NCBI GenBank assembly: GCA_963808335.1 | Contig: CAWEFR010000005.1 | Location: 302,683 to 366,682, forward strand | DNA from: Terriglobia bacterium | Lineage (GTDB): Bacteria > Acidobacteriota > Terriglobia > Bryobacterales > Bryobacteraceae | Direction: 5' to 3' | DNA: 64,000 nucleotides | Shown here: positions 38,667-59,887 of the stretch, piece by piece | How positions within the stretch are numbered: the first letter of the stretch is position 1 | How the letters are laid out: the number at the start of each line of letters is the position of its first letter | Program-made: the position numbers and the translations under genes | The notes under the pieces: model-generated | Databases searched by the model: none | What the model was told of the DNA's origin: nothing | The model's input: the letters and a program-made list of their open reading frames with translations, nothing else

Positions 38667-39905
38667 TTATTCGACAAAACTGAGGGCAGGCCAATCCGGG
38701 ATACTGTTCTCCGAGATAGTAAGCTCGTTCAATACCAGATTCCACATTCGCTCGAAGTCGTTCGCATCTGCGGGGCGAGTGCCGTGAGCAAGCCAGGATT
38801 GGTTCCTCTTTTCAAGGGTTGGCTTGAGCCGATCGTAAACCTCCGGACGTTTGTGGTCTTCCACGAAGGGGCTATACTGCAATGCCGTGAAAACCTTGGC
38901 ACAACTCAACTGGAGGCGGTTTCCTTCGATAAGATCGTCCGGAAAAGTTGATTTCAACTTGGCGGCCACACCTTCGTCGAGCGTATTCAACTGGATACGA
39001 CCGGAAATGGCACCGAATGCAGCGTGAAGACGGTTCTGAGCGAACAGTTCCACGGCGCGGTACAGGCGAGTGATCGCGTCATCGTGATGCCCTTGGCGAT
39101 GCCGCCGGCGCGCGTTAGCCAGCAACTCCAAAAGAGCGCGAGGATGATCCTTCTGACCACGAGCCTCGGTGTCCAATGCTTGAAAGTGCTCTCGTAGCGC
39201 GCGCAGCCAGGCGAGGGCTTTGCTGTTACCCTGATGCTCAAACGCGATCTCGACCAGGCGTTGGAACTGTCCCAGTTCGTTCGGCAGTCCTTTGAATTGG
39301 AAGAGATCCAGTCTGGCGAGTACACGACAGAGGCGGGCGAAAGCCCTTAGCGTCTCGCTCCTCCCGGATGCAATCTCGGCAGCTTGATCGAGCAATTCGG
39401 ATGCTGCCTCAACGTGGCCCTGTTCATAAAATCGAGTCGCCAGTTCGCGCTGACGGATCGCAAGCTGTATCCAGGGATTCGGTCCGGCGACGGGTTTCTC
39501 GGTACCAGTAATCACGGTCCCCAGACCACTCTTCTCCCTGTCGCCAGAAATATAGTGGTAGTTGGGAATCCACTCGACGGCCGCCAATGTGAGGGCAGCG
39601 CTCATCGGCTTGGTGCCTCCGGTGAGATCGAAATAGACATTCTCAGAGCGCAACCGCCGGCGATCCAGCCACCCGCTAATGGCCGGCCGAATTTGCTGAT
39701 AGCACCTGTTCAGGTCGTCCACGTCGTCGAGTCGCACACACTCCCACTGCAATTCATAACCAATTGATGGGAGCACGACCTGCTCGACCTGCGGTTCGGA
39801 CTTCTCCGACACCACAAACAACGCGCACTGGACCGGCTGGCGCTTCAACGCGTCGATTACCGGGGCAGGAGTACCACCCAAGCTGAAGATCGCTCCACGT
39901 GGCAT
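38667..39905 (-). CDS. CARF + HEPN protein (Csx1/Csm6-like; resembles the TIGR02710 family)
   Basis: N-terminus IFSLGGTPAPVIDAL...YFDLTGGTKPMSAAL (CARF). C-terminus KRNQSWLAHG (HEPN Rx4-6H). Last gene of the cmr operon. Confidence 0.7.
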   Translation of the reverse strand: MPRGAIFSLGGTPAPVIDALKRQPVQCALFVVSEKSEPQVEQVVLPSIGYELQWECVRLDDVDDLNRCYQQIRPAISGWLDRRRLRSENVYFDLTGGTKPMSAALTLAAVEWIPNYHYISGDREKSGLGTVITGTEKPVAGPNPWIQLAIRQRELATRFYEQGHVEAASELLDQAAEIASGRSETLRAFARLCRVLARLDLFQFKGLPNELGQFQRLVEIAFEHQGNSKALAWLRALREHFQALDTEARGQKDHPRALLELLANARRRHRQGHHDDAITRLYRAVELFAQNRLHAAFGAISGRIQLNTLDEGVAAKLKSTFPDDLIEGNRLQLSCAKVFTALQYSPFVEDHKRPEVYDRLKPTLEKRNQSWLAHGTRPADANDFERMWNLVLNELTISENSIPDWPALSFVE

Positions 39906-39918
39906 GATCGCCTTCCTC

Positions 39919-41970
39919 TCAAGAAACATATTCCCAGGCAGGATCCTTGGGATTAGCAATTTTGATCTTGAGTTTGACGGTGTCACCCGGTTTTGCATCG
40001 AGCGGCACCGCCTGGGAATTCTGAATGGCACCGGCGAGTCCGGACACAGTCTCTTGAGCCTTCCAGCCCCCCTTTCTCGTTTTCTCCTCCAGCAGAACAC
40101 CCTCTACGACGACGCCGACTTTGAGCACGGAAGCGCTAGGAGGCGGGGCCATCGGCGGGGCGATTGACGGCGGCGGAGGCGCCTGAAACGTCTTCATGCG
40201 TTGTGCAATGTTCGTAGCCAGCTCAGTGATAAAGGCTGAGAGAAACTCCCGATTCTTTTCGAAGCCACGCAACTTCTCGGACGGAAACGCGACAACGTTG
40301 GTCTTGAACCCGGAATCGCTCCGGGCCAGATGGAAATGAACCGGAGAAGCGTGCCGATTCAGTTGTTGCAGTTCCGAATCCGGCTCCTTCATTCGGCGCG
40401 GAAGGCCTAGCGCCTTCTTGTCGATTTGGTGCTTGTAACTCTGTGCGAAAGTTTGGATGGCGTCCCCGAGCTGATCGAGCGCATTCCAGGGATCGCGGCC
40501 CGGAAGGTCTATGAACGTAGGACCGAGCATATTTTCGAGACTCGACGAGTAATGCAGGAACCCGAATTGTCTGGTCTGGTAGCCGACAGCCGCCCTGACT
40601 TCCACCGCACGCTGCTTGCATTCTTCGAGACCGGCGAATCCAGTATCTGCCTCGATGCAGCCGAACCCCTTCCTGGACTTTGAGCCGAGTCCACCGAAGT
40701 TTGAAAGCAGCCACAAGGCGGCTCGCGCCTGATCGATCGCTTCCTGGCTGGAGAGTTGGCCGGTTGGATTCGCAATAATGGTGAGCCTCCACTGCGAACC
40801 GGGCTGCACGTAGTGCCGGGCTCTATCTTTCTCATCCATCCCAAAAGTGATGTATGAGAGGCCCTGGATGGCTTTTGCCCGCACTGGCTTCGCCAATCTC
40901 CATCGCGTCGCTTCGTCGGTTTTCCGGTATCGAACAGGAGAGATCTCTCCAATTGGTTCAAGCGAAATGCTGACTGCCGAAGCGAGGTCCTTTTCTTTGC
41001 CGCTGAGGGTAGAACTGACCGTTCCGCCCCAGATCAACCGCTCAAGTTTCAGAAGTTCGGCCAACGCGAGATGTCCAGCGTGCATTGTGCGCCACCACCA
41101 ACGGAGCAAACCGCGTAGCGTCGTCGGTCGCAGTGTACAATCCTCCGGGCCTTGGAGTGCGCCGGCTAGAAAGGCTGGGCTGACCAGCGTCAGCGTGCTG
41201 GTAAAGACGGAACGGCCGCTCGTAGCGGGCAGAGTGGCATCTGTCGTGAAGCGCCCGTAACCTGCGTTGGTCTTCGCTCCAGCGCCGAGCCAAGCGACCG
41301 CCCCGTCGATCCAGGACTGAGCCAAATCCAACAGCCGGTCGTTGTTGTCTGATCTACTACATGCGGCGACGCGGAACTCGAATTCCGTTCGCGGAGCGAC
41401 CGCGAGGAAGTTGACCGGAACTGGATTCTCCCAGTCACCCGGAGGACCGTCGCCACGGTAGTAGTCGCCGTGATGGCTATTTACAATGTCGACGATCAGT
41501 TTCGGCCACTGGACGGGCAGGGCGTCGAAAAAGACCACGCCTCCGGCTGTACCGTCTTTGTTACTGCTTGTGTCTCTTCCGAAGACCGCCTCAATGTCGG
41601 CGGCAGTGGCCCGAGCCACGTTGCGGGCATAGAAACGCGCCATGCCCTTGAGACCCGTTCCCGGCAGGTAGGCAAAGCCATAGACCGGGTGCAGGCTGAG
41701 GCCCGCATTTTCGAACGACCCCACCCGCGATAGATGCATTGTCAGCGGCCCTGCGGTTCGATGCTTCCAGCTCCTCAGTTTGAATTGAGCGAGTGCCTTC
41801 TCCAACCGCTGGCGGACTCGCGACAATAACACCTCATCGTGGTGCGCCTTCGTCACCCGTTCGAGTTGCTTGCGTTGGAAGTCCTTCGGCGACGATGTCT
41901 GCCAGCATTCATGCCACTTGTCCAACAGAAGACCCGGATGCATCTCCGTGTCCGCAGGCAACGCGATCAT
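39919..41970 (-). CDS. cmr6: Cmr6-Cmr1 RAMP fusion with a Pro-rich linker and extra C-terminal beta-rich domain
   Basis: Cmr6 part: GLLLDKW, LHPVYGFAYLPGTGLKGMAR, G-rich loop GAGAKTNAGYGRF. Cmr1 part: LVSPAFLAG, LRPTTLRGLLRWWWRT, FGGLGSKSRKGFG. Tail: APPPPSIAPPMAPPPSA followed by VGVVVEGVLLEEKTRKGGW...KPGDTVKLKIKI. Confidence 0.7.
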   Translation of the reverse strand: MIALPADTEMHPGLLLDKWHECWQTSSPKDFQRKQLERVTKAHHDEVLLSRVRQRLEKALAQFKLRSWKHRTAGPLTMHLSRVGSFENAGLSLHPVYGFAYLPGTGLKGMARFYARNVARATAADIEAVFGRDTSSNKDGTAGGVVFFDALPVQWPKLIVDIVNSHHGDYYRGDGPPGDWENPVPVNFLAVAPRTEFEFRVAACSRSDNNDRLLDLAQSWIDGAVAWLGAGAKTNAGYGRFTTDATLPATSGRSVFTSTLTLVSPAFLAGALQGPEDCTLRPTTLRGLLRWWWRTMHAGHLALAELLKLERLIWGGTVSSTLSGKEKDLASAVSISLEPIGEISPVRYRKTDEATRWRLAKPVRAKAIQGLSYITFGMDEKDRARHYVQPGSQWRLTIIANPTGQLSSQEAIDQARAALWLLSNFGGLGSKSRKGFGCIEADTGFAGLEECKQRAVEVRAAVGYQTRQFGFLHYSSSLENMLGPTFIDLPGRDPWNALDQLGDAIQTFAQSYKHQIDKKALGLPRRMKEPDSELQQLNRHASPVHFHLARSDSGFKTNVVAFPSEKLRGFEKNREFLSAFITELATNIAQRMKTFQAPPPPSIAPPMAPPPSASVLKVGVVVEGVLLEEKTRKGGWKAQETVSGLAGAIQNSQAVPLDAKPGDTVKLKIKIANPKDPAWEYVS

Positions 41971-42422
41971 GATTTGCCGCCCTTGGCAGCATCCGCGAAG
42001 CGCACCAGCCATTCTAGGTACGCGAGCGCCTCAGCCGTGAGTTGCCGCAGGTCTGCCGCCGTGCCGTCTTTGAACTGAATCATTAGCGCATCATCGCTTG
42101 CCTGATTGATCAATTCCCGTTGTCGGCACCAAGCGGTCAAAGCTGCGACCACTTCGCCACCTTCCTTGGCGCGCATGAACGCCACCGTCTGTCCCAGGCC
42201 CGACGCCCGGATCCGGATCGGCATCTTCTTCGCTGGGCCAGCGAACTTATCGTCAAATTTCTTGAGTTCCGCCTTTTCCAGATCCGCGGGGGAAAGCCTC
42301 TTTCCTTTCCGCTCTAGCTCTTCTCGACACTCAGTTGCCAGGCGCTTCTTTCCTTCTTGCACCTCGTCCCACGCGTGCCGTGCGCGCTGTTGAGCCAGGG
42401 TCTGTGGTGCCATCTTAGTCAC
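41967..42422 (-). CDS. cmr5: Cmr5 (type III-B small subunit)
   Basis: 151-aa helical protein. PIRIRASGLGQTVAFM and position between cmr4 and cmr6. Confidence 0.75.
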   Translation of the reverse strand: MTKMAPQTLAQQRARHAWDEVQEGKKRLATECREELERKGKRLSPADLEKAELKKFDDKFAGPAKKMPIRIRASGLGQTVAFMRAKEGGEVVAALTAWCRQRELINQASDDALMIQFKDGTAADLRQLTAEALAYLEWLVRFADAAKGGKS

Positions 42423-43251
42423 CCCCCTTCACTAGGCGGATCGCACAGAGACCCTTGCCCGTCGTCTCGTCCCCACCGATCTGAATAGTCTCGGGCGGCC
42501 GGAAAGCGCCGAGATTCTGCTCGGCTGTGGCCGGTTGGTCACGCCTTCGCGAAGGCGAGGCCAACACAAGAGAGTAGAGGAGGGTTTCCGCTGGCAGAAA
42601 CTCCTGGTAGAAAAGTGCATGCTCCTCCACCGTCTTGGTTTCCTCCTTGAGTTTGATTCGCGCTGTCACTTCGGTGGCATAGGTCGCAAAGTGGGTGAAG
42701 TTCGTATCATCCAGCACGACCAACCGCTTTCGCTCTTCGCTTTCCAAGGCGTCGAAGAAATCGAGAACGGCGAATTTAGCATCGAAGACAAACTCTTCCA
42801 GGATCAGCTTGTTACCGTTGTGAGCACATGGCGATCCTTCCTCAAAGAAGGCGCCTGACTCACCGGGGTCATTGATTTCAGGAAGCGTAATTTGCGCGCC
42901 TACTAGTCCCGAGTCACGTTTCCAACGCTGGATCACTTGTGGGCACGTCACCCAGGCGAAAACGCCCTTGAGACTGCGCACCGGAAATGCAAGGGTTCGC
43001 GCGTCAGTGAACGACAGCGCGCCGGCAGAAGTCCCTTCGTTGTCGCCGGCTCCGAACAAGCGCGGGCGCAGATCTTTTGGCGTGGCCTCCCGAAGAACGC
43101 CCTTGACACTCGATCCGGGAATGACGGGCCAGTTGGTGTGCCGCTCCCGCTGCACCGGCAGATCCACCGCCCCCAGCGCCGTCCCCGAACCGGGGTGTAA
43201 CGGCGTGAGTGCCTGAAGGTACAGAATAGCGCCTACATTATTCGCTGGCAT
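42415..43251 (-). CDS. cmr4: Cmr4 (Cas7-family backbone RAMP)
   Basis: LQALTPLHPGSGTALGAVDLPVQRERHTNWPVIPGSSVKGVLR, FTDARTLAFPVRS, IQIGGDETTGKG. Confidence 0.9.
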   Translation of the reverse strand: MPANNVGAILYLQALTPLHPGSGTALGAVDLPVQRERHTNWPVIPGSSVKGVLREATPKDLRPRLFGAGDNEGTSAGALSFTDARTLAFPVRSLKGVFAWVTCPQVIQRWKRDSGLVGAQITLPEINDPGESGAFFEEGSPCAHNGNKLILEEFVFDAKFAVLDFFDALESEERKRLVVLDDTNFTHFATYATEVTARIKLKEETKTVEEHALFYQEFLPAETLLYSLVLASPSRRRDQPATAEQNLGAFRPPETIQIGGDETTGKGLCAIRLVKGGD

Positions 43252-44296
43252 AGTTCCACGATCCTTTCAAGAAGAAGCCATAGCCCAAACAAACATCTTC
43301 GCGGTCCTCATTCAGACTCCGGACCGTCGGTACGCGGCCCTCGATGAAGAACACAGAACCCGAATCGACCCCGAACCGCGCCGGCTTCGGACCGCCACGA
43401 GCCAAGTCCCACCCGGAGACTGCGTATGGCCCCTCCACGGCTGCCGCCCGGAGTTGCGCATCCGGAATAACATCTGGCTGCCAACCCTTGATAAAGAACC
43501 CGGGGCTCAACAGCAACAGTGACACGCGATCAGCGGAAGCAGCCTCAGGCCACGTTACGAGCGGGACTTTGCGGATGGCGACGTGATGGCGTTCGCCACC
43601 CCAAGCAACAGTGGTTGGAGTGTCGAAGTGGCCCGCCTTGTTTTCCGGCACGTCCGCTTCAGCATAGAAGCCCCAGCCAGGTCTGAGGCGAAGGTTCCGG
43701 GTTGAGTAGATTTCGCCCTCTTTCGACGCGCTGGTATCCGGATCGATGGAGACCCCGGTCCGGTCCTCACGAAGGTAAGACTCGTCGTGGCGACGCACAT
43801 CCTTCGCCTTGAGCGGGCTGTTGCGCAAGTACGCCGTCAACCCCTCGAAGTTGAGCAACTCAGGCCGCTGCTTCGAGGGCTTCTTCCCCTTTCGCCAGAG
43901 CGGGTACATACCAGCGAGCGGTGGCTGCCAGCCGGGGATCATCCGGGCGGCAGGCTGCAGCCGGACAACCTCGCCATCGACAAACCGCAAATCAGCAGGC
44001 GCGGGGATCAATGGTCGTGGCACTGTCCCATCAAGTTCCGCGAGCCAAGGACCGCGGAAGCAGACATCGCCGAGCCACGCCGCCCCAGCGGCGATGAAGG
44101 CCTCGCTCAGGGTCGGCTTCCCTCGCATGGCGGCGAAGTCGGCGTTTTCGCGGTCAAGCAGGAATGTGCGTAGCACTCCAGCCAAAGATTGCGGCGACGG
44201 CAACGACGACTCGCCGGGCAACCCCGCCCCAAACGGTCGGCCGCCACGAAAAAACAAGGTGTCAAGCGGCTCGAATACCAGTCCGATCGTCTTCAT
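43238..44296 (-). CDS. cmr3: Cmr3 (Cas5-like)
   Basis: Start at MKTIGLVFEPLDTLFFRGGRPFGAG...PSPQSLAGVLR. The ORF's upstream 97 codons overlap cas10 and were discarded. Confidence 0.85.
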   Translation of the reverse strand: MKTIGLVFEPLDTLFFRGGRPFGAGLPGESSLPSPQSLAGVLRTFLLDRENADFAAMRGKPTLSEAFIAAGAAWLGDVCFRGPWLAELDGTVPRPLIPAPADLRFVDGEVVRLQPAARMIPGWQPPLAGMYPLWRKGKKPSKQRPELLNFEGLTAYLRNSPLKAKDVRRHDESYLREDRTGVSIDPDTSASKEGEIYSTRNLRLRPGWGFYAEADVPENKAGHFDTPTTVAWGGERHHVAIRKVPLVTWPEAASADRVSLLLLSPGFFIKGWQPDVIPDAQLRAAAVEGPYAVSGWDLARGGPKPARFGVDSGSVFFIEGRVPTVRSLNEDREDVCLGYGFFLKGSWNYASE

Positions 44297-44301
44297 CGCA
44301 A

Positions 44302-46542
44302 TCAGTCCCTTCCCCGAGCGATGAAGCTTGCCGACTGGCACAAGGCCACGAAGTCCTTGAACGCGGGGCCGCTCAGCTGCACAAAGCCGTCCCAATGTTG
44401 GAGAAAACTCATGTCGCGCTTTTCCGAGCGCGCCAGCAATCGCCCGATCTCTGCGCGAAAGGCACCTTCGGGCAGGCCCTCCAACACAGGCAGCTGCCGC
44501 CGAAGCTGATACGTCCACCGATCTGAATACCCATCCCGGAATGTGTCGCATTCGTTCACCAGCGTGGGCACATAATCCCACCCACACGTGGCGAAGCTGT
44601 GCTCACCGCTGCGCCGCAAGATGGCAAGGGTCAAGCGGTCGCGGCCGGCATTTTTGGACCGCTTCTCAGCTTCGCGGACCGAACCAAGAACGTAGCGCAA
44701 ATTCTCCATCTGGTGGGCCAGTACAAGCCCTGCCGAAGTGCTTGCCCGCGCTCCGAGCACATCGAAGGAGGAAAATGCCTTCCGCAACTCATGGGCGCAC
44801 TGAAGTGCAGTGTTCAGGGGCAGCGCAGCGAGAAGGTCGTCGCCTCCGGCGTAGATCACGACTCCGTTGTGCTGCGTCACGATCTCTGGGACGATGCGGA
44901 TCGCGAATCGATTCAGTGCCTCGCTTATAGCCGCGTGCAACGCAGGCGACACCGGGCGCGGAAGACCAAGAGCCTCCTCAGCGGCACCGTTCCGCTCTTG
45001 CCACGCGGCGATCTTCGGATGCAGGACTTTTGAAATCTTCGGCGATTTCTCGCCCGACAGCCATTTGCCCATTTCATCCCCGTCCATCGACAGCAATGCG
45101 TAATAGTGGCAACCATCTCCAGCCCGCCGGCTGAGCTGTTCCGTGTCGGGGAACCGAAAATTCTCGGGATCGATACCCAGGCGGCTCTTGAAGTAGTGCT
45201 GAAACGCGAAACGCTTGGTCAAGGAGATGGCGCTGAGCCGGTCGGAGTCCTTATACATCTTGGGGTACAACCCTGCGAGTGCCTTAAAGAAGTCGGTCGA
45301 TTGAGCGAATTTCGCGGGGCCCATCTGCTCGTACGTTCCGAGAAGCGAACACTTCTCTGGTACCTCTCCATCGGGCTGGTAATCAGGGATGTGACGAATC
45401 CGGGTCGAGGCGTCCATGAGCATAGTTGAAATCTCGATGGAGTTCTGCCACATTCCTGGCTGAGTATCCCCGCACCAACCCAGGCGTTTGATCGGCTCAA
45501 AACGCCCTACCCTTTCCTGTCCCAGCAACGCCGCATGATCGGCGTCCGCTAGGCGGAAAGATATCGTCCGCAGGTCAAAATAGGAACTGATCTGGGCGTC
45601 CCATAGGCGGTCCCAGCCAGGCCAGTCATGGTCGAGCTGAAGCTTCAAACGTGTGCGGACGCTGTTGGCAATCTCAGTCCACTTGGCCTGCACAGCCTGC
45701 CGCGCCTCCGTCATCAGCGTGTCCGCCAACCCATGCGGAATGAGCGCAAGGAACCGATGCGGAATTGAAGGCCGAGAAAGCGGCTGGGACTCAGGTTCCC
45801 CGACTTCGACCCCTTGATGGCGGAGCCAATCGTCCATGAGAGGGACTCCCCGAAGCGCCGGGTAGATCAGCGCGGTCGGCCCGCAGGCATCCAGGATGGG
45901 CTCGATGGCTGCGAACACAAGCGTCGAGAGCAAGTAGCTGCCCGTGAGGAGGTCGCGCAAGCTGCGGGCTGCCTCAATGAAGGGCTGCACAGGACCGATT
46001 TTGAAACTGAGCAGTGCCGGCCCACCTCCTCCGCGTAAGGCCCACGCCATGGCAGCTGTTGAGTCCAGGTGATGCCACAACGTGTGGTCCGGACAGCGCG
46101 TATCGGCGGGTTGCAAACGCAAGCCAGGCCAGCGCTCCGCGAGACGGCCGGGAGCCAATCGCCACAGGGCGAGAAAGCGCGCCATCGGCGAAAGCTCGGG
46201 GCCGACCAAAGCCCGCAAGGCCTCGCCAACTTCGCGTTCGTTCAACGTTATTTCAATCTCTCGCTGCTCCGCACTGAGGGGATGAGAAACCGTAAGTCGG
46301 CCGTCGACCGGCCCTACGCCCAGCTCTTCGTAGCGGTCCCTTGCGTCAGGCATGGGAAGCCGTTCGTAGGCAGACGCCAGTTGGTCGGCAAGGTCCCCCT
46401 TTAGCTCGGCCGGGGTTACCTCGCGATCTAGAATTGCGACTGCGTACCGGAGCGCGCGAGAAAAGTGTCCACGAATGTCGGCCGCCTTGTCAACGGGATC
46501 ATGGAGCCATGCGAGGAGTAGGGTCTCCCACGGTTCGTTCAT
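44302..46542 (-). CDS. cas10: Cas10/Cmr2 large subunit
   Basis: N-terminus LAWLHDPVDKA (compare Pyrococcus Cmr2 YLHDPPDKA). Palm motifs ALLSMDGDEMGKW and VIYAGGDDLLAALP (GGDD intact). Confidence 0.9.
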   Translation of the reverse strand: MNEPWETLLLAWLHDPVDKAADIRGHFSRALRYAVAILDREVTPAELKGDLADQLASAYERLPMPDARDRYEELGVGPVDGRLTVSHPLSAEQREIEITLNEREVGEALRALVGPELSPMARFLALWRLAPGRLAERWPGLRLQPADTRCPDHTLWHHLDSTAAMAWALRGGGGPALLSFKIGPVQPFIEAARSLRDLLTGSYLLSTLVFAAIEPILDACGPTALIYPALRGVPLMDDWLRHQGVEVGEPESQPLSRPSIPHRFLALIPHGLADTLMTEARQAVQAKWTEIANSVRTRLKLQLDHDWPGWDRLWDAQISSYFDLRTISFRLADADHAALLGQERVGRFEPIKRLGWCGDTQPGMWQNSIEISTMLMDASTRIRHIPDYQPDGEVPEKCSLLGTYEQMGPAKFAQSTDFFKALAGLYPKMYKDSDRLSAISLTKRFAFQHYFKSRLGIDPENFRFPDTEQLSRRAGDGCHYYALLSMDGDEMGKWLSGEKSPKISKVLHPKIAAWQERNGAAEEALGLPRPVSPALHAAISEALNRFAIRIVPEIVTQHNGVVIYAGGDDLLAALPLNTALQCAHELRKAFSSFDVLGARASTSAGLVLAHQMENLRYVLGSVREAEKRSKNAGRDRLTLAILRRSGEHSFATCGWDYVPTLVNECDTFRDGYSDRWTYQLRRQLPVLEGLPEGAFRAEIGRLLARSEKRDMSFLQHWDGFVQLSGPAFKDFVALCQSASFIARGRD

Positions 46543-47687
46543 TGAAGTTTCTCTCCCGACGAAACAATCCTGACTTGATCGCTCCGTAGCCGCAACCCAT
46601 ACTTCGTGTTGGGTCGTTGGCTGGTGGCATGAATTCTGTAAACCTCAGCTTGCGCCCCCAGCACCTTTCGCAACAGCGCATGAACTCGCGACTTGTGCTG
46701 GAGAAAGAAGTCCTTGTCCATGCCATGCCGTAGAGCGTAGGCCGTTCGTGAATCGTCGCTGGAGTCGCCAATTATGAGCCGGTATTCCCGCAAGTACTCT
46801 TCGGCTAAGGAGGCGTCTCCATATTCGGGAGGCGGGCAAGCAAGGGGCTCACGTGCCTCGACTGCTCGGCGAGCGAACATCGCGTAGAAAGCCAGGTCGC
46901 CTGGACAGAGCCGTAAGGAGATGCCGCCGCCTTTCGCTTCGTTCCGAATAAGGTCGACAATGAGTTCGGGGGGGCCCAAACTGCGTTGGGCAGCTTCGAC
47001 GGCTTCAATGAATGACGTCCGGCCTGAAAGCAACGATTCTGGCAACCCGTGCCGCAGGCGCACGAACGGGATATCCGCGAGAGTGACCTTTGCCGTTGAC
47101 GTATCCAGTGGGCGGCTATCGGGTGGGGCAGTGTAAATAACATGGCTCTTTCGCGTTGGAAAGAAGAAGCTCGGATGTGACTCGAACGGTGGCGACACAA
47201 GAACATGCGAAAGCCTGTCTTGTGCACGGCCGTACAGCGAAATTGCATAGCCCAAGAAGAAGCCGATAGTCTTTCGTCCGCCGGCTATCGAGACGTGCAG
47301 GGCACCCTCATCGTCCTCTGTGAGTTCCCGGATAAGTTCCGTGATCCCGTCCGCGGCATGCTGGTTGTCCTCGGCTGAGCGGATGTCGTCCAGCGCTTGG
47401 CCTTGGCTGTCTTCAAGGACGACGATCATGCCCGGGTTGAATACGGCGGGCGGCAACTGATACTCGTCCAACAGCCGTTTCAGCCACTTCTGATCGTCGC
47501 CGAGCAGCATCAGCCTCGCTCGATCAGCTCCTTCACGCGTGGTCGCAAGCCTGACTTCCGTTGGAATCCAAGGGTGGGCGGCAGCGACGGCTAGAGCGTA
47601 GAAGGATTCGGTGACCACCTGGGGCGTCAGCCCGGCGGCGACAAGCAGGATGCGGCGCGCGTACTCGCTCGGATCTCCATTTATCAC
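46539..47687 (-). CDS. NE0113/TIGR02584-type CARF protein (Csx14-like) with a ~170-aa C-terminal extension
   Basis: RILLVAAGLTPQVVTESFYAL, LDDIRS.EDN, LHVSIAGGRKTIGFFLGYAISLYGRAQDRLSHVLVSPPFE. ATGA overlap with the cas10 start. Confidence 0.75.
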   Translation of the reverse strand: MINGDPSEYARRILLVAAGLTPQVVTESFYALAVAAAHPWIPTEVRLATTREGADRARLMLLGDDQKWLKRLLDEYQLPPAVFNPGMIVVLEDSQGQALDDIRSAEDNQHAADGITELIRELTEDDEGALHVSIAGGRKTIGFFLGYAISLYGRAQDRLSHVLVSPPFESHPSFFFPTRKSHVIYTAPPDSRPLDTSTAKVTLADIPFVRLRHGLPESLLSGRTSFIEAVEAAQRSLGPPELIVDLIRNEAKGGGISLRLCPGDLAFYAMFARRAVEAREPLACPPPEYGDASLAEEYLREYRLIIGDSSDDSRTAYALRHGMDKDFFLQHKSRVHALLRKVLGAQAEVYRIHATSQRPNTKYGLRLRSDQVRIVSSGEKLQ

Positions 47688-49842: not shown

Positions 49843-52800
49843 ATGAAATACAGCGATCTGGTCAAGTTTCGAGCCAATCGAATCCGTCATCCAGCTTGAG
49901 CAGGCGGATTCACCCGCCGCCGTGCGGCAACTCGTTCAGACGTTCGTGATCTCGAAGCGCATGGCCGAGCAGTTGTGCGATCTGGTGATCCCCAACCTCC
50001 AGTTCGAGTCGCCCGCCGACAACAAGGGCGTCCTCATCGTCGGCAACTACGGCACAGGTAAGAGCCACTTGCTGTCGCTGATTTCCGGGCTTGGCCGAGT
50101 ATCCCGACATGGCCAAGGTCGTCAAGGACAAGGACGTGGCGAAGGCGGCGAAGGCGATCTCCGGGAAGTTCAAAGTCGTGCGGCTCGAACTCCCGGCCAC
50201 GAAGAAGAGCTTGCGCAACATCATCTGCGGCAGACTCGAAGACTTCATGTCGAACGAAGGGCTGACCTTCAGCTTCCCCGCCGACGATCAGGTGGACAGC
50301 AACAAGGACGACCTGTCCAACATGATGGCGCAGTTCAGCGAGAAGTATCCCGAACCACGGTCTGCTCCTGGTCGTGGACGAACTGCTCGACTACCTGCGC
50401 TCCCGCAAGCAGCACGATCTCATCCTCGACCTCGGCTTCCTGCGGGAAATCGGCGAGGTCTGCAAGCTGATCCGCTTCCGCTTCATCGCGGGCTTGCAGG
50501 AGAGCCTGTTCGACAACCCGAAGTTTCAGTTCGTCGCCGAGAGCCTGCGCCGGGTAAAGGATCGCTTCGAGCAGGTTCGCATCGTCCGGCAGGACGTGGC
50601 CTACGTCGTTTCCGAGCGGCTGCTGACCAAGAACGACGAGCAGAGGGCCAAGATTCGGGAACACCTTCAGAAGTTCACGCCGCTCTACGGCGGCATGGCC
50701 GAACGGCTGGAAGAGTTCGTGCGGCTGTTCCCGGTCCACCCGACATACCTGGAAGTCTTCGAGGCCATCTCCATCGCCGAGAAGCGGGAAGTGCTGAAGA
50801 CTCTGAGCGCCGAGATCAAACGCTGCCTCAACAGCGACGTGCCGCAGGACCAGCCCGGCCTCATCAGCTACGACTCGTATTGGGAGTTCCTTCAGGGCAA
50901 TGCCGTGCTGCGTTCGGTCCCGGAAATCCGGGAAGTGATCGACGTGAGCAAGGTCGTCGAGAACCGCATTCAGCAAGCCTTCACCCGCAAGGCGCTTCAG
51001 CCGATGGCAGAGCGCATCATCCACGGCCTGTCGATCCATCGGCTGACGACCGACGACATCCGGGCCAAGATCGGCCCGACCGCCGAAGAACTTCAGAACG
51101 GCCTGTGCCTGTTCGCTCCGATCCCGGAGAAGACCAGCGACTTCCTGCGCACGACCGTGGAAGCGTGCCTGAAGGAAGTGATGAAGACCGTGAGCGGCCA
51201 GTTCATCACGCACAACACCGACAACGACCAGTATTACCTCGACCTCCAAAAGACCATCGACCACGACGCCAAAATTCAGGACAAGGCCGACACGCTCTCC
51301 GATTCGCAACTGGACCAATACTACTTCGACGCCCTGACCCGTGTGCTGGAATGCGCCGACCAGCCACCTTACGTGCGTGGCTACCAGATTTGGGAACACG
51401 AGATCGAATGGCGAGAGCACAAGATCACACGCCGAGGATACCTGTTCTTCGGCGCACCGAACGAGCGATCCACGGCCCAACCGCCACGAGACTTCTACCT
51501 GTACTTCCTCCAGCCATTCGAGCCGCCACACTTCGAGGATCAGAAACTCGCCGATGAAGTGTTCTTCAAGCTGACCCACATGGACAAGCAGTTCCAGGAC
51601 ACGCTGCGCCTCTACGCTGGCGCTCGTGAAATGGCAGCGTCGGCCAGCAGCGGCACGAAGAAAGTCTATGAGGACAAGGCCGACGGGTTCCTCAAGACGC
51701 TCGTGGCGTGGCTGCGGACCAACATGCTGACTTCGTTCGATGTCATCCACCAGGGCGTTCCGAAGAAGATGGTGGAGTGGCTGAAGGGACACCGAACCGG
51801 CAACGCTGCCGTCCGTGAACTGTTGGAACTGACAGGCTCGGTCTGTCTGGCGGCTTCGTTCGAGGATCGCTACCCGGAGTACCCGAGCTTTCACGGTCAA
51901 CTCACCGCCAGCAACCTCAAGCAGCCGACAGAAGACGTGATCCGCTGGCTGGCCGGTGGCGTGAAGAACAATCTGGCGACCGCCGTTCTCGACGGCCTGG
52001 AACTGCTGGACGGCGACAAGCTGAAGCCGCACCAGTCCCGCTACGCCAAGGTGGTGCTGGAGAAGCTGGAAGGCAAGCCGCCCGGCCAGGTCGTCAACCG
52101 CAAGGAACTCATGACGGTCAAGAACGACGTGGAGCGGGAGACCCGGTACCAGCTTGAGCCGGAATTTCTGCTCGATCGTCCTGGCCTCGCTCGTGCAGAA
52201 CGGCAACATCACCCTGAGCTTGACTGGCAAGAAGCTCGACGCCGCCAATCTGAGTGAAGCCAGCAAGATGCCGCTGGATCAACTTCTGGCTTTCAAGCAC
52301 GTCGAGAAGCCCAAGGGCTTGCCGCTGGCCGAGTTGGTCGCCCTGTTCGAGTTGCTGGGGCTGGCCGAAGGGCTGATCCGCAACGAAAACACGCACGACG
52401 AAGCGGTAAAGCAACTTCGAGCCAAGGCCAACGAACTGACCGAGAAGGTCGTCACGGTCGCCCAGCACGTCCAGACCGGCTTGCCTTGCTGGGGTAGCGA
52501 ACTGATTCCCGCCGAGGACCGGGAGCAGCAGCGTCAGAAACTCGATGAACTGAAGGCGTTTCTGGAGGGACTGCAAGCGTTCAACACGCCCGGCAAGCTG
52601 AAGAATTTCTCCAAAAGCGTGCTGGAGATTCAGGTTCAAGCTGCCAACCTCGATCTCATCAAAGCAGACTCGAAGACCTGAACGGTCTGGTGCAGGAGTT
52701 GACGCCACTGACAGGCTACCTGGCGACCGCTGCTGCTGTGCTGCCGCCGCAAGACCCGTGGCGAACGCAGATGGACACGATGCGCAGCGAATGGCGTGCG

Positions 52801-53566
52801 AAGCTGATGGACCCCGCCGCCCGCAATGCCGCCGACTTCCGCCAGAAGATCAATCGGGCGCTCTCGAAGGTGAAGGACGACTACCGGACGGCGTACTTCA
52901 ATCTGCACAAGAAGGCTCGGCTGGGGGTCAACGAGGACGGCAAGAAAGAAGGAACTGCTGAAAGACCCGAGGCTGGAAAGCTTGAAGAAGCTGACCAGGT
53001 GTATCGCTGCTGCCGCATTCAACTCTCACTGAACTTCAGACCCGGCTGGCAAAGCTCCAACCGTGCTTCACGCTGGTCAAGGATGATCTGAACGCTTCGC
53101 CCATCTGTCCCCACTGCAACTTCCGACCGCAGGAAGAGAGTCGTGGGCGCCAGCGGAATGGCGGTCCTCCAGCAGATCGACCAGCAGCTAGACGGCCTGT
53201 TGGAGAACTGGACGCAAGACGCTGCTGGAGAACCTGGACGATCCCACCGCCAAGAAGAGCATCAAGCTGCTTGCCTGACGATCAGAAAGAAGCGGTCAAT
53301 GCCTTCCTCAAGGCGAAGGCACTCCCGGAGAAGATCAGCAACGATCTGGTCCAGGGGATGCAGACGGCGCTATCCGGCCTGATCGCCATCCCAATCCGCC
53401 CGACCGAACTGCTCGACGCCTTGAGCGATAGCGGCGCTCCTTCCACCGCCGATCAGATTCAGTCCCGGTTCGAGAAGTTCCTGCAGAAAGATCACACAGG
53501 GGCAAGGAACAATCGAAAGTCCGTCTGGTCATCGAACGTAGCGAGAATCCAGGAGGACAAGAGTGA
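49843..53566 (+). pseudogene. brxC: BREX type 3 large ATPase BrxC (DUF6079-like), about 10 frame breaks as assembled; 3' end inferred
   Basis: [22 protein letters not shown], Walker [16 protein letters not shown], Walker [13 protein letters not shown]. An intact 627-aa block spans 50374-52257. C-terminal CPHCNF motif. Confidence 0.7.
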
Positions 53567-56500
53567 CCACGCACCTGTCCACCCGCCTCGTCTGGCACGA
53601 CCGGGCTTGGGACGGTCACATCTGCGATCACCCCAGCAAGAACGCCTACTGCATTGTGCAGCAGCACATCCGGGATGGCCGAGATGACGACCAAGGAGGA
53701 CAAAGCGGCTGGTCTGGCTCTTGCGGAACTCAAAACATGGCAACCCCCGTGCTCCCGTGATCCCATTGCCTTCTCGTCTCGTGGCTACACGATCACGCAC
53801 AACGATCCGCTTGAATTCCGCCAGTTGCCTTCGGTAAAGGAAGACATACCGCCGTATTCGGTCTGCCCGTCGCCGTACCGCTGGCTGCGAGAGGAGAGCT
53901 TTCGCAGCATCTGCGAGGATGAAAAGCTCGACATCCGGGAATCGGACACGAAGGACAAAGAGTTCGGCTGGGTCTTTGAACCCGACCGGCAGATCGAACT
54001 GCTGCGCAACTTTTGGGGAAAGCTGGAGAAGAAGCAAGTCGCTGCTGTTCTTCTATTGCAACCACGGCAACCCGCTCGATGAAAGCCTGAACCGTATATT
54101 GCTCGGGGTCAGCCGCATTTCTCAAATCGGTCCTCAACTATTCTTCGGAAAGAAGCTCCCGAAGTTTCCCGACCAGTATCCGATCTGGTCCCGCTGCATT
54201 ACGCACGACTTCGAGAACCAGGGCTTCCGGTTGCCATACCACGAATATCTAAAGGCCGGCACGATCCGAAGAACATCCTTTGCCTTGTCCCGGAAGGGGC
54301 GATGCTGAACTTCTCCTACGTCGCCGAGCACGTTGGCGACGACATGGCAGTAGGCGCACTGGAGAGGTTGCTGCAATCGGTTCAGGCCGTCAAGGACGAG
54401 AACAAAGTCTCTGGTGATTGGGACCGGCATCTTCTTTGGCTGAACGATGTGCTGTCCGAGGTTTGGCAGAATCGTGGGCCATTCCCCGGCATCGGCAGCG
54501 TACTCCAGTACCTCGGCTGCGAATCGGGCACGGCGTTCCAGCGGGAGGTTCTGGTGCCCTTACTGAACAAAGGCGATGACGCATGGGAATACGTCAAGGC
54601 CATTCTGGAAGGTCGCCGCAAGTGTGAGCAGCAGCAGTATGCAAAGGCGCTGAAACAGGCAGGTGAACGCTGGATGGCTTACAAGGAGCCACGCCGCCGT
54701 CTGTTGTCGATGCTCGTTCGACTTGAACTGACGCCTCAACAGGTGGAGCGGGTCGCCAATCCCGACAAACGTTCAAATTCCGGCATCAGCGCCACGGACG
54801 AACAACTCGTCGCCAATCCCTACTTGCTTTCGGAGATGGACCAGGGCGACGGTGAATCCGACCTGATCGCTTTGGAAACGGTAGACAGGGCAATGCGACC
54901 CGAAGGTGCCGCGGCTCGATTCATCGACAAGGCCGACATCTGCGTTCAGGATGACCCTCGCAGAGTTCGTGGCGTGGCGGTCGCCGTACTTCAAGGAGCG
55001 GCGCAACAGGGCGACACTCTACTGCCGTTTGCCGAGACCATCAACCGCATCATCAAACGTTTTCCCGAACGCCGCACGTGTAGCCCTGACAAAGATTTGG
55101 TGCAGGGCCAAGCCAGCTTCTATCAGGAAGCTCTGGATTTCCGAGTGGATGGCAATCCGCCCACGATGGCGCTGAAGTGGCTTTCCGAACTGGAGCGTGA
55201 AGTCAGCAGCCGACTGCCCCGGCGAACGAAGGCCAAGAATCCAGCGCCCAAGGCCGGATGGAGTTGGGAGAAGCTGCTGCTGGACGAGTTCGGCAAGAAG
55301 TCCGGCTCCAAGTTGCCGCCCGAAGTGGAGGAACGGGCCAGGAAGGAGAAGGCGGAAGCTCTGGCCAAGCTCTACGAGGGCCGATTCAGCGTACTGTGCG
55401 GACGAGCCGGGACCGGCAAGACATCGGTGCTGAAGGTCTTCCTCAAAGGGCTGGAAGAGTTGGACGGCAAGCGCCCGATTCTGCTCCTGGCCCCGACCGG
55501 CAAGGCCCGTGTGCGCCTGATGGATCGGACAAAGCGGGACGACGGTAGCGTGCGGGATGCGTACACGATTCACCAGTTCCTGATGCGGCACAAGTGGCTC
55601 AACCCGGAGAACTTCGCCTTGAAGCTCCAGGGTGGCGAACAGCATGGCGCACCGACCGTCATCATCGACGAAGCCTCGATGATCCCGATGGACCTGCTCG
55701 GTGTTCTGTTCCGGGCATTGGACTTGAACAAGGTGAATCGTCTGATCCTCGTGGGCGACCCCAACCAACTCCCGCCCATCGGCCCCGGTCGTCCGCTCGT
55801 GGACATCATCGCCTGGCTCGAATCGGACGCTGGATCGAACGAAGTGCCTGGCGCGGCTGATGGAGCGTGCCAGACACGAAGACCATGACAGCCAGGCCCT
55901 TCAGCTTGCGGACGGCTATCTGCGGGACGACACTTCTCCCGGCGACGATGACATGCTTTCCCGTGTTGCCCGTGAGGACGTGGGCGGTGATCTGGAAGTT
56001 CGCTACTGGCGGGATGCGACCCAACTGGAAGAACAGCTTGCCGCTGCAATGCGGAAGCACCTGAAGTTGACCGACGACACGAAGGCATACATTCCATTCA
56101 ATGCCAGCCTCGGACTGCCTGAAGACGCCAAAAAGAACGACCCGGTTCAAGCGGAGACGTTGGCAGATTCTCAGCCCAGTGCGTAACCACGAGTTCGGAA
56201 CCACCGAGATCAATCGTAAGATTCAGGCGAAGTATCGGGGAGGAATGCTCACGACAGCAAAGAATCAGTGGAGCAAGGTCGTGAAGCCATTCGGCGAGCA
56301 GGAGATCGTCTGGACCGACAAGGTGATGCAGGCGATCAACTGCCGGAAGACCTCCTATCCGAAGGGTCAGGAGGGGACTGGATTACGTCGCCAATGGCGA
56401 GATCGGCCTCGTAGTGCAGACATCCAAAGGGAACGGCAAACCAGACTCGATCAAAGTCCAGTTCTCGACTCAACCGGCGTCGTCCTATTACTACTCCCGT

Positions 56501-57184
56501 TCCGATGTCGATGGCCAACTGGAACTTGCCTACGCCCTGACGGTCCACAAGTCGCAGGGCAGCGACTTCGACATCGTGTTCTTTGTCCTGCCGAAGAGCG
56601 CAAGCACCCTCTCACGGGAATTGCTGTACACCGGCCTGACCCGGTTTCGCAAGAAGATGGTGCTGCTGCTGGAGCGGGACACGACGGTTCTCGAAAAACT
56701 CCGCAATCCACAGTGCTCGGATACGCTGCTTCGGAACACGAATATGTTCGTTCTGGCGGTTCGCCCCGAATCGGTGGACCGCTACTATGCCGCTCATCTG
56801 ATTCACCGCACACGCCCATCGGCGCAACACCCGCAAGGGATTCTGGTCCGCTCGAAGTCGGAGGTAATCGTCGCCGACATCCTGACAAGCCTAGGAGTCA
56901 GTTACGAGTACGAGCAGAAGCTCCCCTCCAAGGACGACCCGAACGACTTCAAGCTGCCGGATTTCACAGCGAGCTACGAGGGCGACACGTTCTATTGGGA
57001 GCATCTGGGGATGCTGTCGGTGCCATCGTACCGGGAAGCGTGGGATCGCAAGCGGCAGTGGTACGAAGACAACGGGTACCTCGACCGGATCATCACGTCC
57101 GAGGACGGCGCTGACGGGAGCATCGACGCCGCCGAGATCGAGCGGATCGCACGCAAGAAGATTCTGATGGAAGGCTTGAACTAG
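53563..57184 (+). pseudogene. ~1,200-aa SF1 (RecD/AAA_30-type) helicase with an unassigned ~500-aa N-terminal region and a PD-(D/E)xK-like C-terminal module; about 6 frame breaks as assembled
   Basis: LCGRAGTGKTS, VIIDEASMIP, LILVGDPNQLPPIGPG, ALTVHKSQGSDFD, LYTGLTRF. C-terminus: SKSEVIVADIL...DFKLPDFT...FYWEHLG. Frame breaks near 53690, 54040, 54290, 55860, 56170 and 56390. Confidence 0.7.
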
Positions 57185-57195
57185 CGACGAGCGAT

Positions 57196-59884
57196 ATGGC
57201 AAACACAACGCAGACCAAAATGTTCGCTTCGGACCGGAACGTTGCCTCAGACCAGCCGGTCGAGTGCTTGGGAATCAAGTTCCCAAACGATGAGGCTCGT
57301 CGAGCCCACTTCCTTGAGAAGTTGCGGGAGAAACTGAAGGACCCTGCTTTTCGCAAGATCGACGGATTCCCCCGTGGAGAGGACGAGGACATTTTGGCCA
57401 TGTCAGACCCGCCGTATTATACGGCGTGCCCAAACCCCTTTCTTCACGACTTTCTGCTGGCGAACGGCAAGCCTTTCAGTCCGAACACTGACAAATACCA
57501 TCGAGAGCCATTTGCCGCCGATGTTTCAGAGGGCAAGAACGACCCGATCTATAACGCTCATAGCTACCACACAAAGGTCCCGCACAAGGCGATCATGCGG
57601 TACATTCTTCACTACACAGAACCGGGTGACGTTGTTTTGGATGGATTTTGTGGAACAGGTATGGCCGGAATTGCTGCACAACTCTGTGGCGACGCCAGCG
57701 TGGTCGGATCGCTTGGTTACAAGCGTTCTAAAGGCGATACCCTCCTGAATGAGAGTGGCACGCCTTTCTCCAAGCTCGGGGCCCGCCGAGCGGTCTTATC
57801 CGATTTGTCGCCAGTTGCCAGCTTCATCGCACACAACTACAACACGCCCTTAGATGTTCGGGCGTTCGAAAAAGCCGTTGCCTCATTCTTCGCAGAGATT
57901 GAAGTCGAGTTGTCGTGGATGTACACCACGAAGCATTCTGATGGGACCGCCTGTCGGATCAACTACGTTGTGTGGTCCGAAGTATTCTTGTGCCAAGACT
58001 GTGGAGCAGAGGTCGTCTTTTCGAAACAGGCGCTCAATGAAAAGACGGGGGAAGTGCTAAAAGAGTTCACCTGCCAGAAATGTAACGCCATCGTCTCCAA
58101 GCGCACGATGTCCCGAGTGTTCGAGACGTTTCTTGATCCGGTGAACCACACCACTGCGAAGCGGGTCAAGCGGCTTCCGTTGATTATCAACTACACATTC
58201 GGTGGGACGAAATTCGAAAAACAGCCAGACAAGTCTGATCTTGCCACCCTCGCAAAGATCGAAGCCTCGCCTGTCAACGGGTTCTTCCCCGCAGTTGAAA
58301 TGCCTTACATGTTCATCACTCATGTCAAGGACAGGATGGCGAATTTCGGCATTTCCCACTTTTCGCATTTTTTCCTTCCCCGATCTCTGCGCGCTCTGGC
58401 GACTATGTGGAGAGTCGCCAACAGATGTGAGGATGCCCGTGTTCGACATGCGCTGCTGTTCATGGTGGAACAGTGCAATTGGGGAATGTCGCTCTTCGCT
58501 CGATATGTTCCTACACACTTCTCCCAGGTTAACCAGTATTTGAGCGGCGTGTTCTACATCAGTTCCCAGATAGTGGACGTATCCCCGTGGTACATACTAG
58601 ATGGAAAGTCTCGGCGCCTGGGCAAGGTGTTTGCAGCGCTTCCTTCAAACGGCGGCGTCGTGACATCACTTCACTCGGGTACCGCGGCGCTGCTGCCGAG
58701 TCAATCCGTAGATTACATCTTTACCGATCCTCCGTTTGGCGAGAACTTGCAGTACTCCGAACTCAATTGGCTGACGGAAGAATTCTACAGGCTGAAGCCC
58801 AAGATTGAAACAGAAGCGGTAATCAATGCGGCGCAAAAGAAGGGGCTACTTGAGTATCAAGGTCTGATGGAGAAATGCTTCGAGCAGAACTACCGTGTTT
58901 TGAAACCGGGACGTTGGATGACCGTGGAGTTCCACAATTCCAGAAATGCCGTTTGGAACGCAATCCAAGAGGCGATGCAACGGGCTGGCTTCGTTGTGGC
59001 CGACGTTAGGGTCCTCGACAAACAACACAAAACATACAAACAGCAGGTTCAAGGCGTGGTGAAGGCGGATCTCATCATTTCGGCGTACAAGCCATCCTTA
59101 GAGCTTGAGGAGCGGTTCAAGATTGAGGCCGGAACCGAACAGGGTGTCTGGGATTTTCTTCAACACCACTTGCAACAGCTTCCCAGTTTTGTCGAAAACG
59201 GAGGACGAGCCGAGGTCATCGCCGAGCGCCAAGGGTACCTTCTGTTTGATCGTATGGTGGCATTTCATGTTCAGAGGGGAGTGGGAGTGTTCTTGTCCGC
59301 CCCGGAGTTTTACGCAGGGTTGCGTCAGCGGTATCCCGAGAGGGACGGCATGTACTTTCTGCCAGTTCAGGCAAATGAGTATGACCGCAAGCGTCTAGAA
59401 GTGGAGGAAATCGGCCAGTACGATCTTTTTGTCAGCGATGAAAAAAGTGCGATTCAATGGGTTCGTCGCCAGCTGTCGGAGACCCCGATGGACTATCAGC
59501 AATTGCAGCCAATGTACATGAAAGAAGCACAGCGAGTTTGGGAGAAACACGAACAACCATTGGAACTCAGAACGATCCTAGAGCAGAACTTTGTTGAGGG
59601 CAAGGACGGGACCTGGCATGTTCCTGATCCAAAAAAGGAAACTGATCTCGACCAACTTCGCAACCGAGCGTTGTTGAAGGAATTTCAGCAGTACCTGGAG
59701 GCGAAAGGCAAACTCAAGGTCGTCCGCACAGAGGCTCTTCGGGCGGGATTCAAGGACTGCTGGCAGAGGAAGAGACTTCACCACTATTGTTCAGATGGCA
59801 AAGCGTCTCCCGGAGACTGTGATTCAAGAAGACCAAGCGTTGCTGATGTACTTCGATAATGCGTCTCTGCTATCCGGTGAGTAG
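57196..59884 (+). pseudogene. pglX: BREX type 3 DNA methyltransferase PglXI; one frame break near 59775
   Basis: MSDPPYYTACPNPF, VVLDGFCGTGMAG, IFTDPPFGENLQYSELN. The 887-aa frame is intact up to the last ~35 codons. Confidence 0.85.
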
Positions 59885-59887
59885 GAC

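Follow-up and report, generated by a model that had tools for sequence, protein, structure and literature searches.

The window analysed here is a stretch of 64,000 nucleotides (C5:302683-366682) on C5, a 410-kb contig of a 7.0-Mb bacterial assembly in 7 contigs, and ORF listing combined with family scans places seven co-directional genes on its minus strand between positions 38667 and 47687, in the order CARF(NE0113)-cas10-cmr3-cmr4-cmr5-cmr6::cmr1 fusion-CARF/HEPN (Table 1). A preliminary description had read a seven-gene operon there, and in this it holds good, since all of the ORFs are present and match the families it named. Judged by its sequence, the operon carries what marks type III-B (Cas10 of the Cmr2 kind, Cmr3, Cmr4, Cmr5, Cmr6, Cmr1 and the HD and GGDD motifs) and is a complete, intact and ordinary Cmr module for interference and signalling.

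Cas10 is assigned to the Cmr2 kind on matches to both the Cmr2 N-terminal domain and the palm domains. It retains the two motifs ascribed to it earlier, with the HD pair (residues 14-15) lying within 'WLHDPVDK' (residues 12-19) and GGDD (residues 573-576) within 'AGGDDL' (residues 572-577); residues 485-492 read 'SMDGDEMG'. With HD and GGDD intact, the protein is a predicted DNase and cyclase. The operon's first gene encodes a putative cyclic-oligoadenylate sensor that matches the PADLOC model CARF5--CARF over its full length (5e-120), and the last one a CARF-HEPN protein that matches CARF1--CARF_HEPN (7e-66) and has an R-x6-H motif, 'RNQSWLAH', at residue 432. As an aside, the C-terminal ~140 aa of the NE0113 protein form an uncharacterised stretch, and a sequence search for a relative of solved structure returned none. 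Cmr4 carries 'AVDLPVQRE' close to its N-terminus, the Asp of which we take to be a candidate catalytic residue. As to gene boundaries, the start of cmr3 was taken at the ATG of 'MKTIGLVFEPLDTLFFRGGRPF', and this ATG at 44299, 3 nt beyond the cas10 stop, is most likely the right one, while the CARF/HEPN gene likely starts at 39905, inside its longer ORF. With both starts so placed, the long ORF overlaps would be artefacts of high G+C content.

Cmr6 and Cmr1, the two subunits capping the complex, are joined in a single ORF, the first half of which is matched by solved Cmr6 chains and the second half by solved Cmr1 chains. The joined gene is also seen in four related loci (L024, L025, L027, L052), across distant phyla, and represents a natural single-chain form of the two subunits; a literature search for a described Cmr6-Cmr1 fusion returned nothing specific.

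Table 1. Features of the Cmr operon, the neighbouring type I module and the CRISPR arrays of the genome. Positions without a contig name are those of the window.
Feature	Position	Strand	Family match or remark
CARF protein, Cas_NE0113 / CARF5 family, 382 aa	46539..47687	-	PF09623 7e-44; TIGR02584 6e-66
cas10/cmr2, 746 aa	44302..46542	-	TIGR02577 3e-67; PF12469 8e-28; PF22335 8e-33
Protospacer in cas10 3' end	44334-44370	-	37/37 identical to spacer no. 42 of the C5 array
cmr3 (Cas5-like)	43238..44299	-	PF09700 1.5e-50, profile positions 3-367 of 367
cmr4 (backbone Cas7, presumed target-RNA-cleaving subunit)	42415..43251	-	TIGR02580 4.5e-64
cmr5 (Cas11 small subunit)	41967..42422	-	PF09701 2e-20; TIGR01881 1e-13
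cmr6::cmr1 fusion gene, about 683-697 aa	39919..42012	-	TIGR01898 Cmr6 residues 101-256; TIGR01894 Cmr1 residues 277-454
CARF-HEPN RNase, Csx1/Csm6 kind, TIGR02710 family	38667..40100	-	TIGR02710 5e-46; PF09670 HEPN 3e-22
cas6	C5:370946-371890		PF10040; PADLOC Cas6 3.5e-76
Array, 43 repeats	C5:380212-383379		type I module led by cas6
Array, 85 repeats	C1:2086783-2092905		type I-G
Array, 14-22 repeats	C4, about 400.6-402.0 kb		I-C-like repeat
Array, 7 repeats	C2:1497569-1498051		type I-G effector

A type I module beyond the window

The operon is without guide-making genes of its own. In line with the preliminary description, its flanks proved free of direct repeats on re-reading, and an array, cas6, cas1 and cas2 are all missing from the window: all Cas6 and Cas1 family matches of the genome fall outside it, and a scan of the window for the genome's nearest CRISPR repeat found no copy. 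The label 'stand-alone', however, has to be given up, as the contig also carries cas6, cas1, cas2, cas4 and an array of 43 repeats at a distance of 20-30 kb from the operon. An array with cas6 just outside the window, in the same island, had been named at the outset as what would make this an ordinary III-B locus, and such an arrangement is what we find, the type I module beginning 4.3 kb past the window end. There, C5 carries a large serine recombinase gene followed by cas6, cas3, a Cas8a-like gene, cas7 (DevR), cas5a, cas1, cas2, cas4 and the array; cas6 lies 20.6 kb and the array 29.8 kb beyond the operon end, and the Cmr operon and the cas6-led unit are transcribed divergently. Between operon and cas6 lie a DUF932 gene, fragments of BrxC and of PDC-S68, PglXI, BrxHI and the serine recombinase, so that the whole region is a composite defence island made up of Cmr, a BREX-like locus and type I CRISPR-Cas. 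We also considered that the gap might be a 20-kb insertion bounded by the recombinase; this found no support, the recombinase and both flanks being conserved beside cas6 in a related metagenome contig (L110).

Among PADLOC models, the type I module is best matched by Cas8a (1e-25, C-terminal half), Cas5a (2e-59) and Cas7 (1e-58), its Cas3 is a single helicase-HD protein scoring best against Cas3g and Cas3a1, and a Csa5 small subunit was not seen in the module. The repeat of its array is 37 nt long and identical in all 43 counted copies, forms a hairpin of 6 bp with UGAAAC after it, and separates spacers of 35-40 nt, bar one 67-nt stretch that contains a damaged repeat copy. Compared with Rfam, the array matched no family, and a promoter scan of its leader was uninformative, the sole match lying on the wrong strand.

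A whole-genome search for CRISPRs (by k-mers) and for cas6 and cas1, proposed earlier as a check on the locus, gave four arrays, three cas1 genes and two Cas6 genes. Cas1 family matches adjoin the arrays on C4, C1 and C5, and a stand-alone Cas6 adjoins only the C5 array among the four. C1 has a full type I-G system and C2 a type I-G effector set, both with Csb2; a type III-A locus is represented on C7 by fragments (parts of Csm1, Csm3, Csm4 and Csm5). The second Cas6 is an orphan paralogue at C1:1576007, 47% identical to that of C5 and away from any array. Three unrelated repeat families are present in the genome. With all this in view, the reading of the Cmr operon as an orphan effector is cleared up: this is not a genome with an orphan or stand-alone type III system.

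Source of the Cmr guides

With a probability of roughly 0.7, we think that the Cmr complex uses crRNAs from the C5 array, a link that is suggested by what surrounds its relatives. A scan for relatives of Cas10 gave 55 loci, the nearest of which belongs to a Bryobacterales MAG (76% identity over the full length) and has the same gene order minus the NE0113 gene. Many of these loci carry arrays, with repeats ending in AUUGAAAC or AUUGAGAC, and relatives with the same Cmr gene order carry arrays along with cas1-cas2. The C5 repeat has 30/37 positions in common with the repeat of the array that adjoins one homologous Cmr locus (L025), and in another (L024) a homologue of the C5 Cas6, 30% identical, sits immediately upstream of cas10. 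When metagenomes were scanned with the repeat core, the C5 repeat family turned up in three settings: it adjoins the same type I module in L087, L160 and L125, stands beside a different type I effector set in L110, where Cas1/Cas2 are 95-98% identical and the flanks are the same, and makes up an array in L103, at a distance of some 9 kb from a canonical cmr1-cas10-cmr3-cmr4 locus.

Following this reading, each step of which is drawn from homology, the C5 Cas6 would cut the transcript of the 37-nt-repeat array 8 nt from the repeat 3' end and thereby leave an 8-nt 5' tag, ACUGAAAC. The complex of Cas10, Cmr3, Cmr4, Cmr5 and Cmr6::Cmr1 would load these guides and bind complementary transcripts, which Cmr4 would cut, and Cas10 would then be switched on, its HD nuclease as well as its GGDD cyclase, the latter producing cyclic oligoadenylate that may activate the CARF-HEPN RNase and be sensed by the NE0113-type CARF protein, too. 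The supply of new spacers would fall to the neighbouring cas1-cas2-cas4. As for the earlier proposal that guides come from a remote array in trans unless the complex has been repurposed, its first part (outside array, processing in trans) fits our data and the repurposed alternative becomes unnecessary.

Several points count against the C5 array. Comparison of its repeat with the 8-nt tag of Cmr systems, again suggested beforehand, puts ACUGAAAC one base off the AUUGAAAC found beside the closest relative that has an array; operon and cas6 are 20.6 kb apart, with other genes in between, and the two units are divergently oriented; and the genome has the second, orphan Cas6 as well as type I-G arrays that are also plausible donors. 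Whether the guides come mainly or additionally from these arrays on C1 and C2, with Csb2 or the orphan Cas6 as the processing enzyme, is therefore a question to be asked, and the two sources need not exclude each other. Read in the sense ending in GAAGC, the I-G repeats would give AUUGAAGC, which is identical to AUUGAAAC in 7/8 positions, the orphan Cas6 is remote from any array, and the Bryobacterales MAG likewise encodes a solitary Cas6, the surrounding 20 kb containing neither an array nor any further cas homologue. The neighbourhoods of the two solitary Cas6 genes, when compared, showed no conserved synteny. Promiscuous use of guides by III-B modules is documented, moreover (PMC5576922). 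Beyond their last few bases, however, the I-G repeats resemble the repeats beside related Cmr loci little (only 19-21/37 positions in common, as opposed to 30 between the C5 and L025 repeats), the I-G arrays sit on other contigs, and it was with the C5 Cas6 as query that the Cas6 family beside cas10 in L024 was detected. To us, a supply from the I-G arrays seems rather unlikely. Very improbable is an operon that is guide-less and inactive or repurposed: operon and window do lack array and cas6, but all subunits and catalytic motifs have stayed intact over 9 kb although other genes in the assembly are frameshifted, a Cas6 and an array compatible with it lie nearby, and the relatives of same gene order have arrays and cas1-cas2.

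A spacer identical to cas10 and the state of cas8

BLAST of all spacers against the genome identified one, no. 42, the last spacer of the C5 array and the furthest from the cas genes, with a perfect match in cas10. A search for the site gave a single hit, free of mismatches and located on the minus strand, and 100 shuffles gave none; the protospacer, which codes for GPAFKDFVALCQ, falls within the final 70 nt of cas10. A resident spacer is thus identical over its full length to a site outside the arrays, in conserved cas10 coding sequence, and so is self-targeting. Since the homologous site in the Bryobacterales MAG has five or more differences, the perfect match indicates that the spacer was taken from the cas10 allele of its own lineage. 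The adjacent cas genes were taken to set the direction of the array; the repeat then ends in GAAAC, as it does in every related locus, and spacer 42 is in the sense of the cas10 mRNA. A Cmr complex guided by it would not pair with this mRNA, and the spacer would be harmless to RNA-targeting Cmr, which fits its survival under RNA-targeting surveillance. A DNA-targeting type I complex, on the other hand, could pair it with the other strand, and candidate reasons for why this is tolerated are the lack of a suitable PAM, a defective cas8 and weak expression of the oldest spacer. On the protospacer strand the flank reads ...CTGAGC. Comparison of the whole C5 array with phage and plasmid collections, and of three of its spacers with IMG/VR, gave no match; in the absence of another protospacer, a PAM could not be derived. 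A modest curiosity, the spacer is a direct trace of either conflict or accidental self-sampling between co-resident CRISPR systems.

The second of these candidate reasons directs attention to cas8, which reads as two ORFs, the middle 87 codons being in another frame (two frame changes), while each of its homologues is encoded by one ORF, of 547 aa in L160 and 565 aa in G017. Taken at face value, the frameshifts would be real and the type I effector truly dead, with the unit of cas6, cas1, cas2, cas4 and array kept only for Cmr. This would explain why the 37/37 cas10 spacer survives, as only an RNA-targeting system ignores mRNA sense. In the same assembly, however, rpoB is split over 2 frames and rpoC over 3, completeness of the genome is scored at 61% despite the 7 contigs, the damaged repeat copy, near the cas-proximal end of the C5 array, has homopolymer deletions, and the shifted segment of cas8 is still well conserved; the tolerance of spacer 42 would also be accounted for by an unsuitable PAM. 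Hence, sequencing or assembly error is at least as likely as real frameshifts in cas8, and a dead effector is in our view unlikely. As for the fuller scenario in which the type I Cascade was inactivated, its cas6-adaptation-array unit taken over by Cmr and the cas10 spacer able to survive since sense-blind RNA targeting is all that remains, we consider it distinctly unlikely; if it were true, the locus would record a III-B cassette once treated as foreign by the array it now depends on.

The indel errors make the fine detail of any gene in this assembly less certain than usual, and per-contig statistics of ORF length did not separate the contigs by error rate. We have withdrawn an earlier idea that BrxC, PDC-S68, cas8 and the Csm genes on C7 are decayed pseudogenes, given that rpoB and rpoC are frameshifted, too. 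Frameshifts in essential genes such as these should temper pseudogene calls on this genome.

Comparison with known systems

The arrangement, a type III-B interference module in company with a type I system, is a usual one and of a known kind. The type I system beside the Cmr operon very probably supplies its guides; the locus would then be a textbook III-B module alongside a guide-making type I system and opens no new question. According to PMC5576922 and PMC4666368, many III-B systems have no cas1, cas2, cas6 or array and make use of arrays belonging to type I systems in the same host, with experimental cases of such sharing from Marinomonas, Sulfolobus and Pyrococcus.

In Sulfolobus islandicus REY15A, according to Deng et al. 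2013 as cited in PMC5576922, III-B (Cmr) uses crRNAs of the type I-A locus. Our locus is alike in combining a Cmr operon without an array of its own, accessory CARF-HEPN RNases and a co-resident type I system with Cas6, which here scores best against I-A models. It differs in being bacterial (Acidobacteriota, Bryobacterales-like), in the fusion of Cmr6 with Cmr1, in its single helicase-HD Cas3 and in that Csa5 was not found, and guide sharing is the likely rather than the demonstrated state here. The parallel with Marinomonas (2017, PMC5576922) lies in a horizontally mobile III-B interference module that depends on a type I Cas6 for its guides, the proposed benefit in that case being a back-up against phages that escape type I through PAM mutations. 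The Marinomonas III-B system, however, has its own RT-Cas1, Cas2 and array and a type I-F partner (PMC5576922), whereas the Cmr operon described here has no RT-Cas1, Cas2 or array and a partner other than I-F.

In Pyrococcus furiosus, the Cst, Csa and Cmr systems share one Cas6 and common arrays (PMC4666368). Cmr and type I modules in one locus, a single Cas6 there and an 8-nt repeat-derived tag (predicted in our case) are features common to both; all arrays of P. furiosus share one repeat, however, whereas in the genome studied here the repeats fall into three unrelated families, and the modules are set apart by 20 kb of BREX-like genes. As for the cas10-matching spacer, a review of tolerated self-targeting spacers lists PAM mismatch, cas mutation and inhibition as routes to tolerance (PMC6990116). 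Like the cases reviewed, spacer 42 has a perfect chromosomal match, and all of the listed routes are possible for it. Unlike in those cases, its target, cas10, is part of another CRISPR system located nearby on the same replicon, and the sense orientation of the spacer would hide it from Cmr.

Reading-frame breaks and assembly quality

That the genome assembly contains indel errors in essential genes follows from rpoB and rpoC on contig C7, which occupy two and three reading frames, respectively, and pseudogene calls for this genome are therefore unsafe. In the type I module on C5, the Cas8a-like large-subunit gene is broken by two compensating frame changes, roughly 270 nt apart, and its homologues each form a single unbroken ORF (547 and 565 aa). 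The array of the same module begins with an overlong 'spacer' that holds a repeat copy in which several homopolymers have lost single bases, with a spacer of half length on either side. An assembly error confined to this spot is the most likely cause, and the real array therefore probably has 44 repeats.

Gene breakup is also seen in the BREX-like locus, where BrxC is split into at least four ORF fragments and PDC-S68 into two. The fragmentation may reflect either true decay or assembly error. PglXI in this locus measures 887 aa, and BrxHI (629 aa) matches profile positions 4-608 of 933.

Features by position (C, contigs of the assembly; L, stretches of it)
Feature	Coordinates	Remarks
First 'spacer' of C5 array	C5:380249-380315	67 nt
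Cas8a-like gene, type I module	L001 7880-9586 (C5:374562-376268)	outside window
rpoB and rpoC	C7:143305-152183	outside window; frames broken
BREX-like locus	window 49922-61777	between Cmr operon and type I module
Type III-A (Csm) remnant	L017 7852-12617 (C7:172851-177616)	
Orphan Cas6 paralogue	L018 9990-10805 (C1:1575989-1576804)	271 aa

CRISPR-Cas components elsewhere in the genome

The type III-A remnant on C7 comprises part of Cas10/Csm1 within a frame of 226 aa, a Csm3 split over two frames and weak pieces of Csm4 and Csm5, with no array nearby. Two separate type I-G systems are present as well: one (C1:2092500-2110499, stretch L019) is complete and includes a Cas4/Cas1 fusion as well as an array of 85 repeats, and the other (C2:1488000-1507999, stretch L021) consists of csb1, csb2, cas3g and a 7-repeat array, with no adaptation genes among the ORFs scanned beside it. 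Spacer 2 of the I-C-like array occurs once more, identical over all 34 nt, at a site 41.7 kb from it (C4:358905-358938). This site is preceded by GAAAC, with which the repeat ends, and looks like a stray repeat-spacer fragment rather than a true target.

The orphan Cas6 paralogue on C1 is 47% identical to the Cas6 of C5. No array on C1 is closer to it than about 510 kb, and the sole neighbouring ORF scanned has no cas family match. A lone Cas6 likewise occurs in the Bryobacterales MAG that bears the closest Cmr operon.

Comparison with a related type I locus

When C5:368944-384557 is compared with metagenome contig Ga0210402_10000142, which carries a close relative of this locus, the two have the recombinase, cas6, the repeat family and the flanks in common, and their cas1-cas2-cas4 genes are 95-98% identical. 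The type I effector genes differ, however, with ORFs of 528, 359, 251 and 731 aa on the metagenome contig placed between the parts common to both. The difference resembles an exchange of effector modules at an adaptation/array site that itself is fixed.
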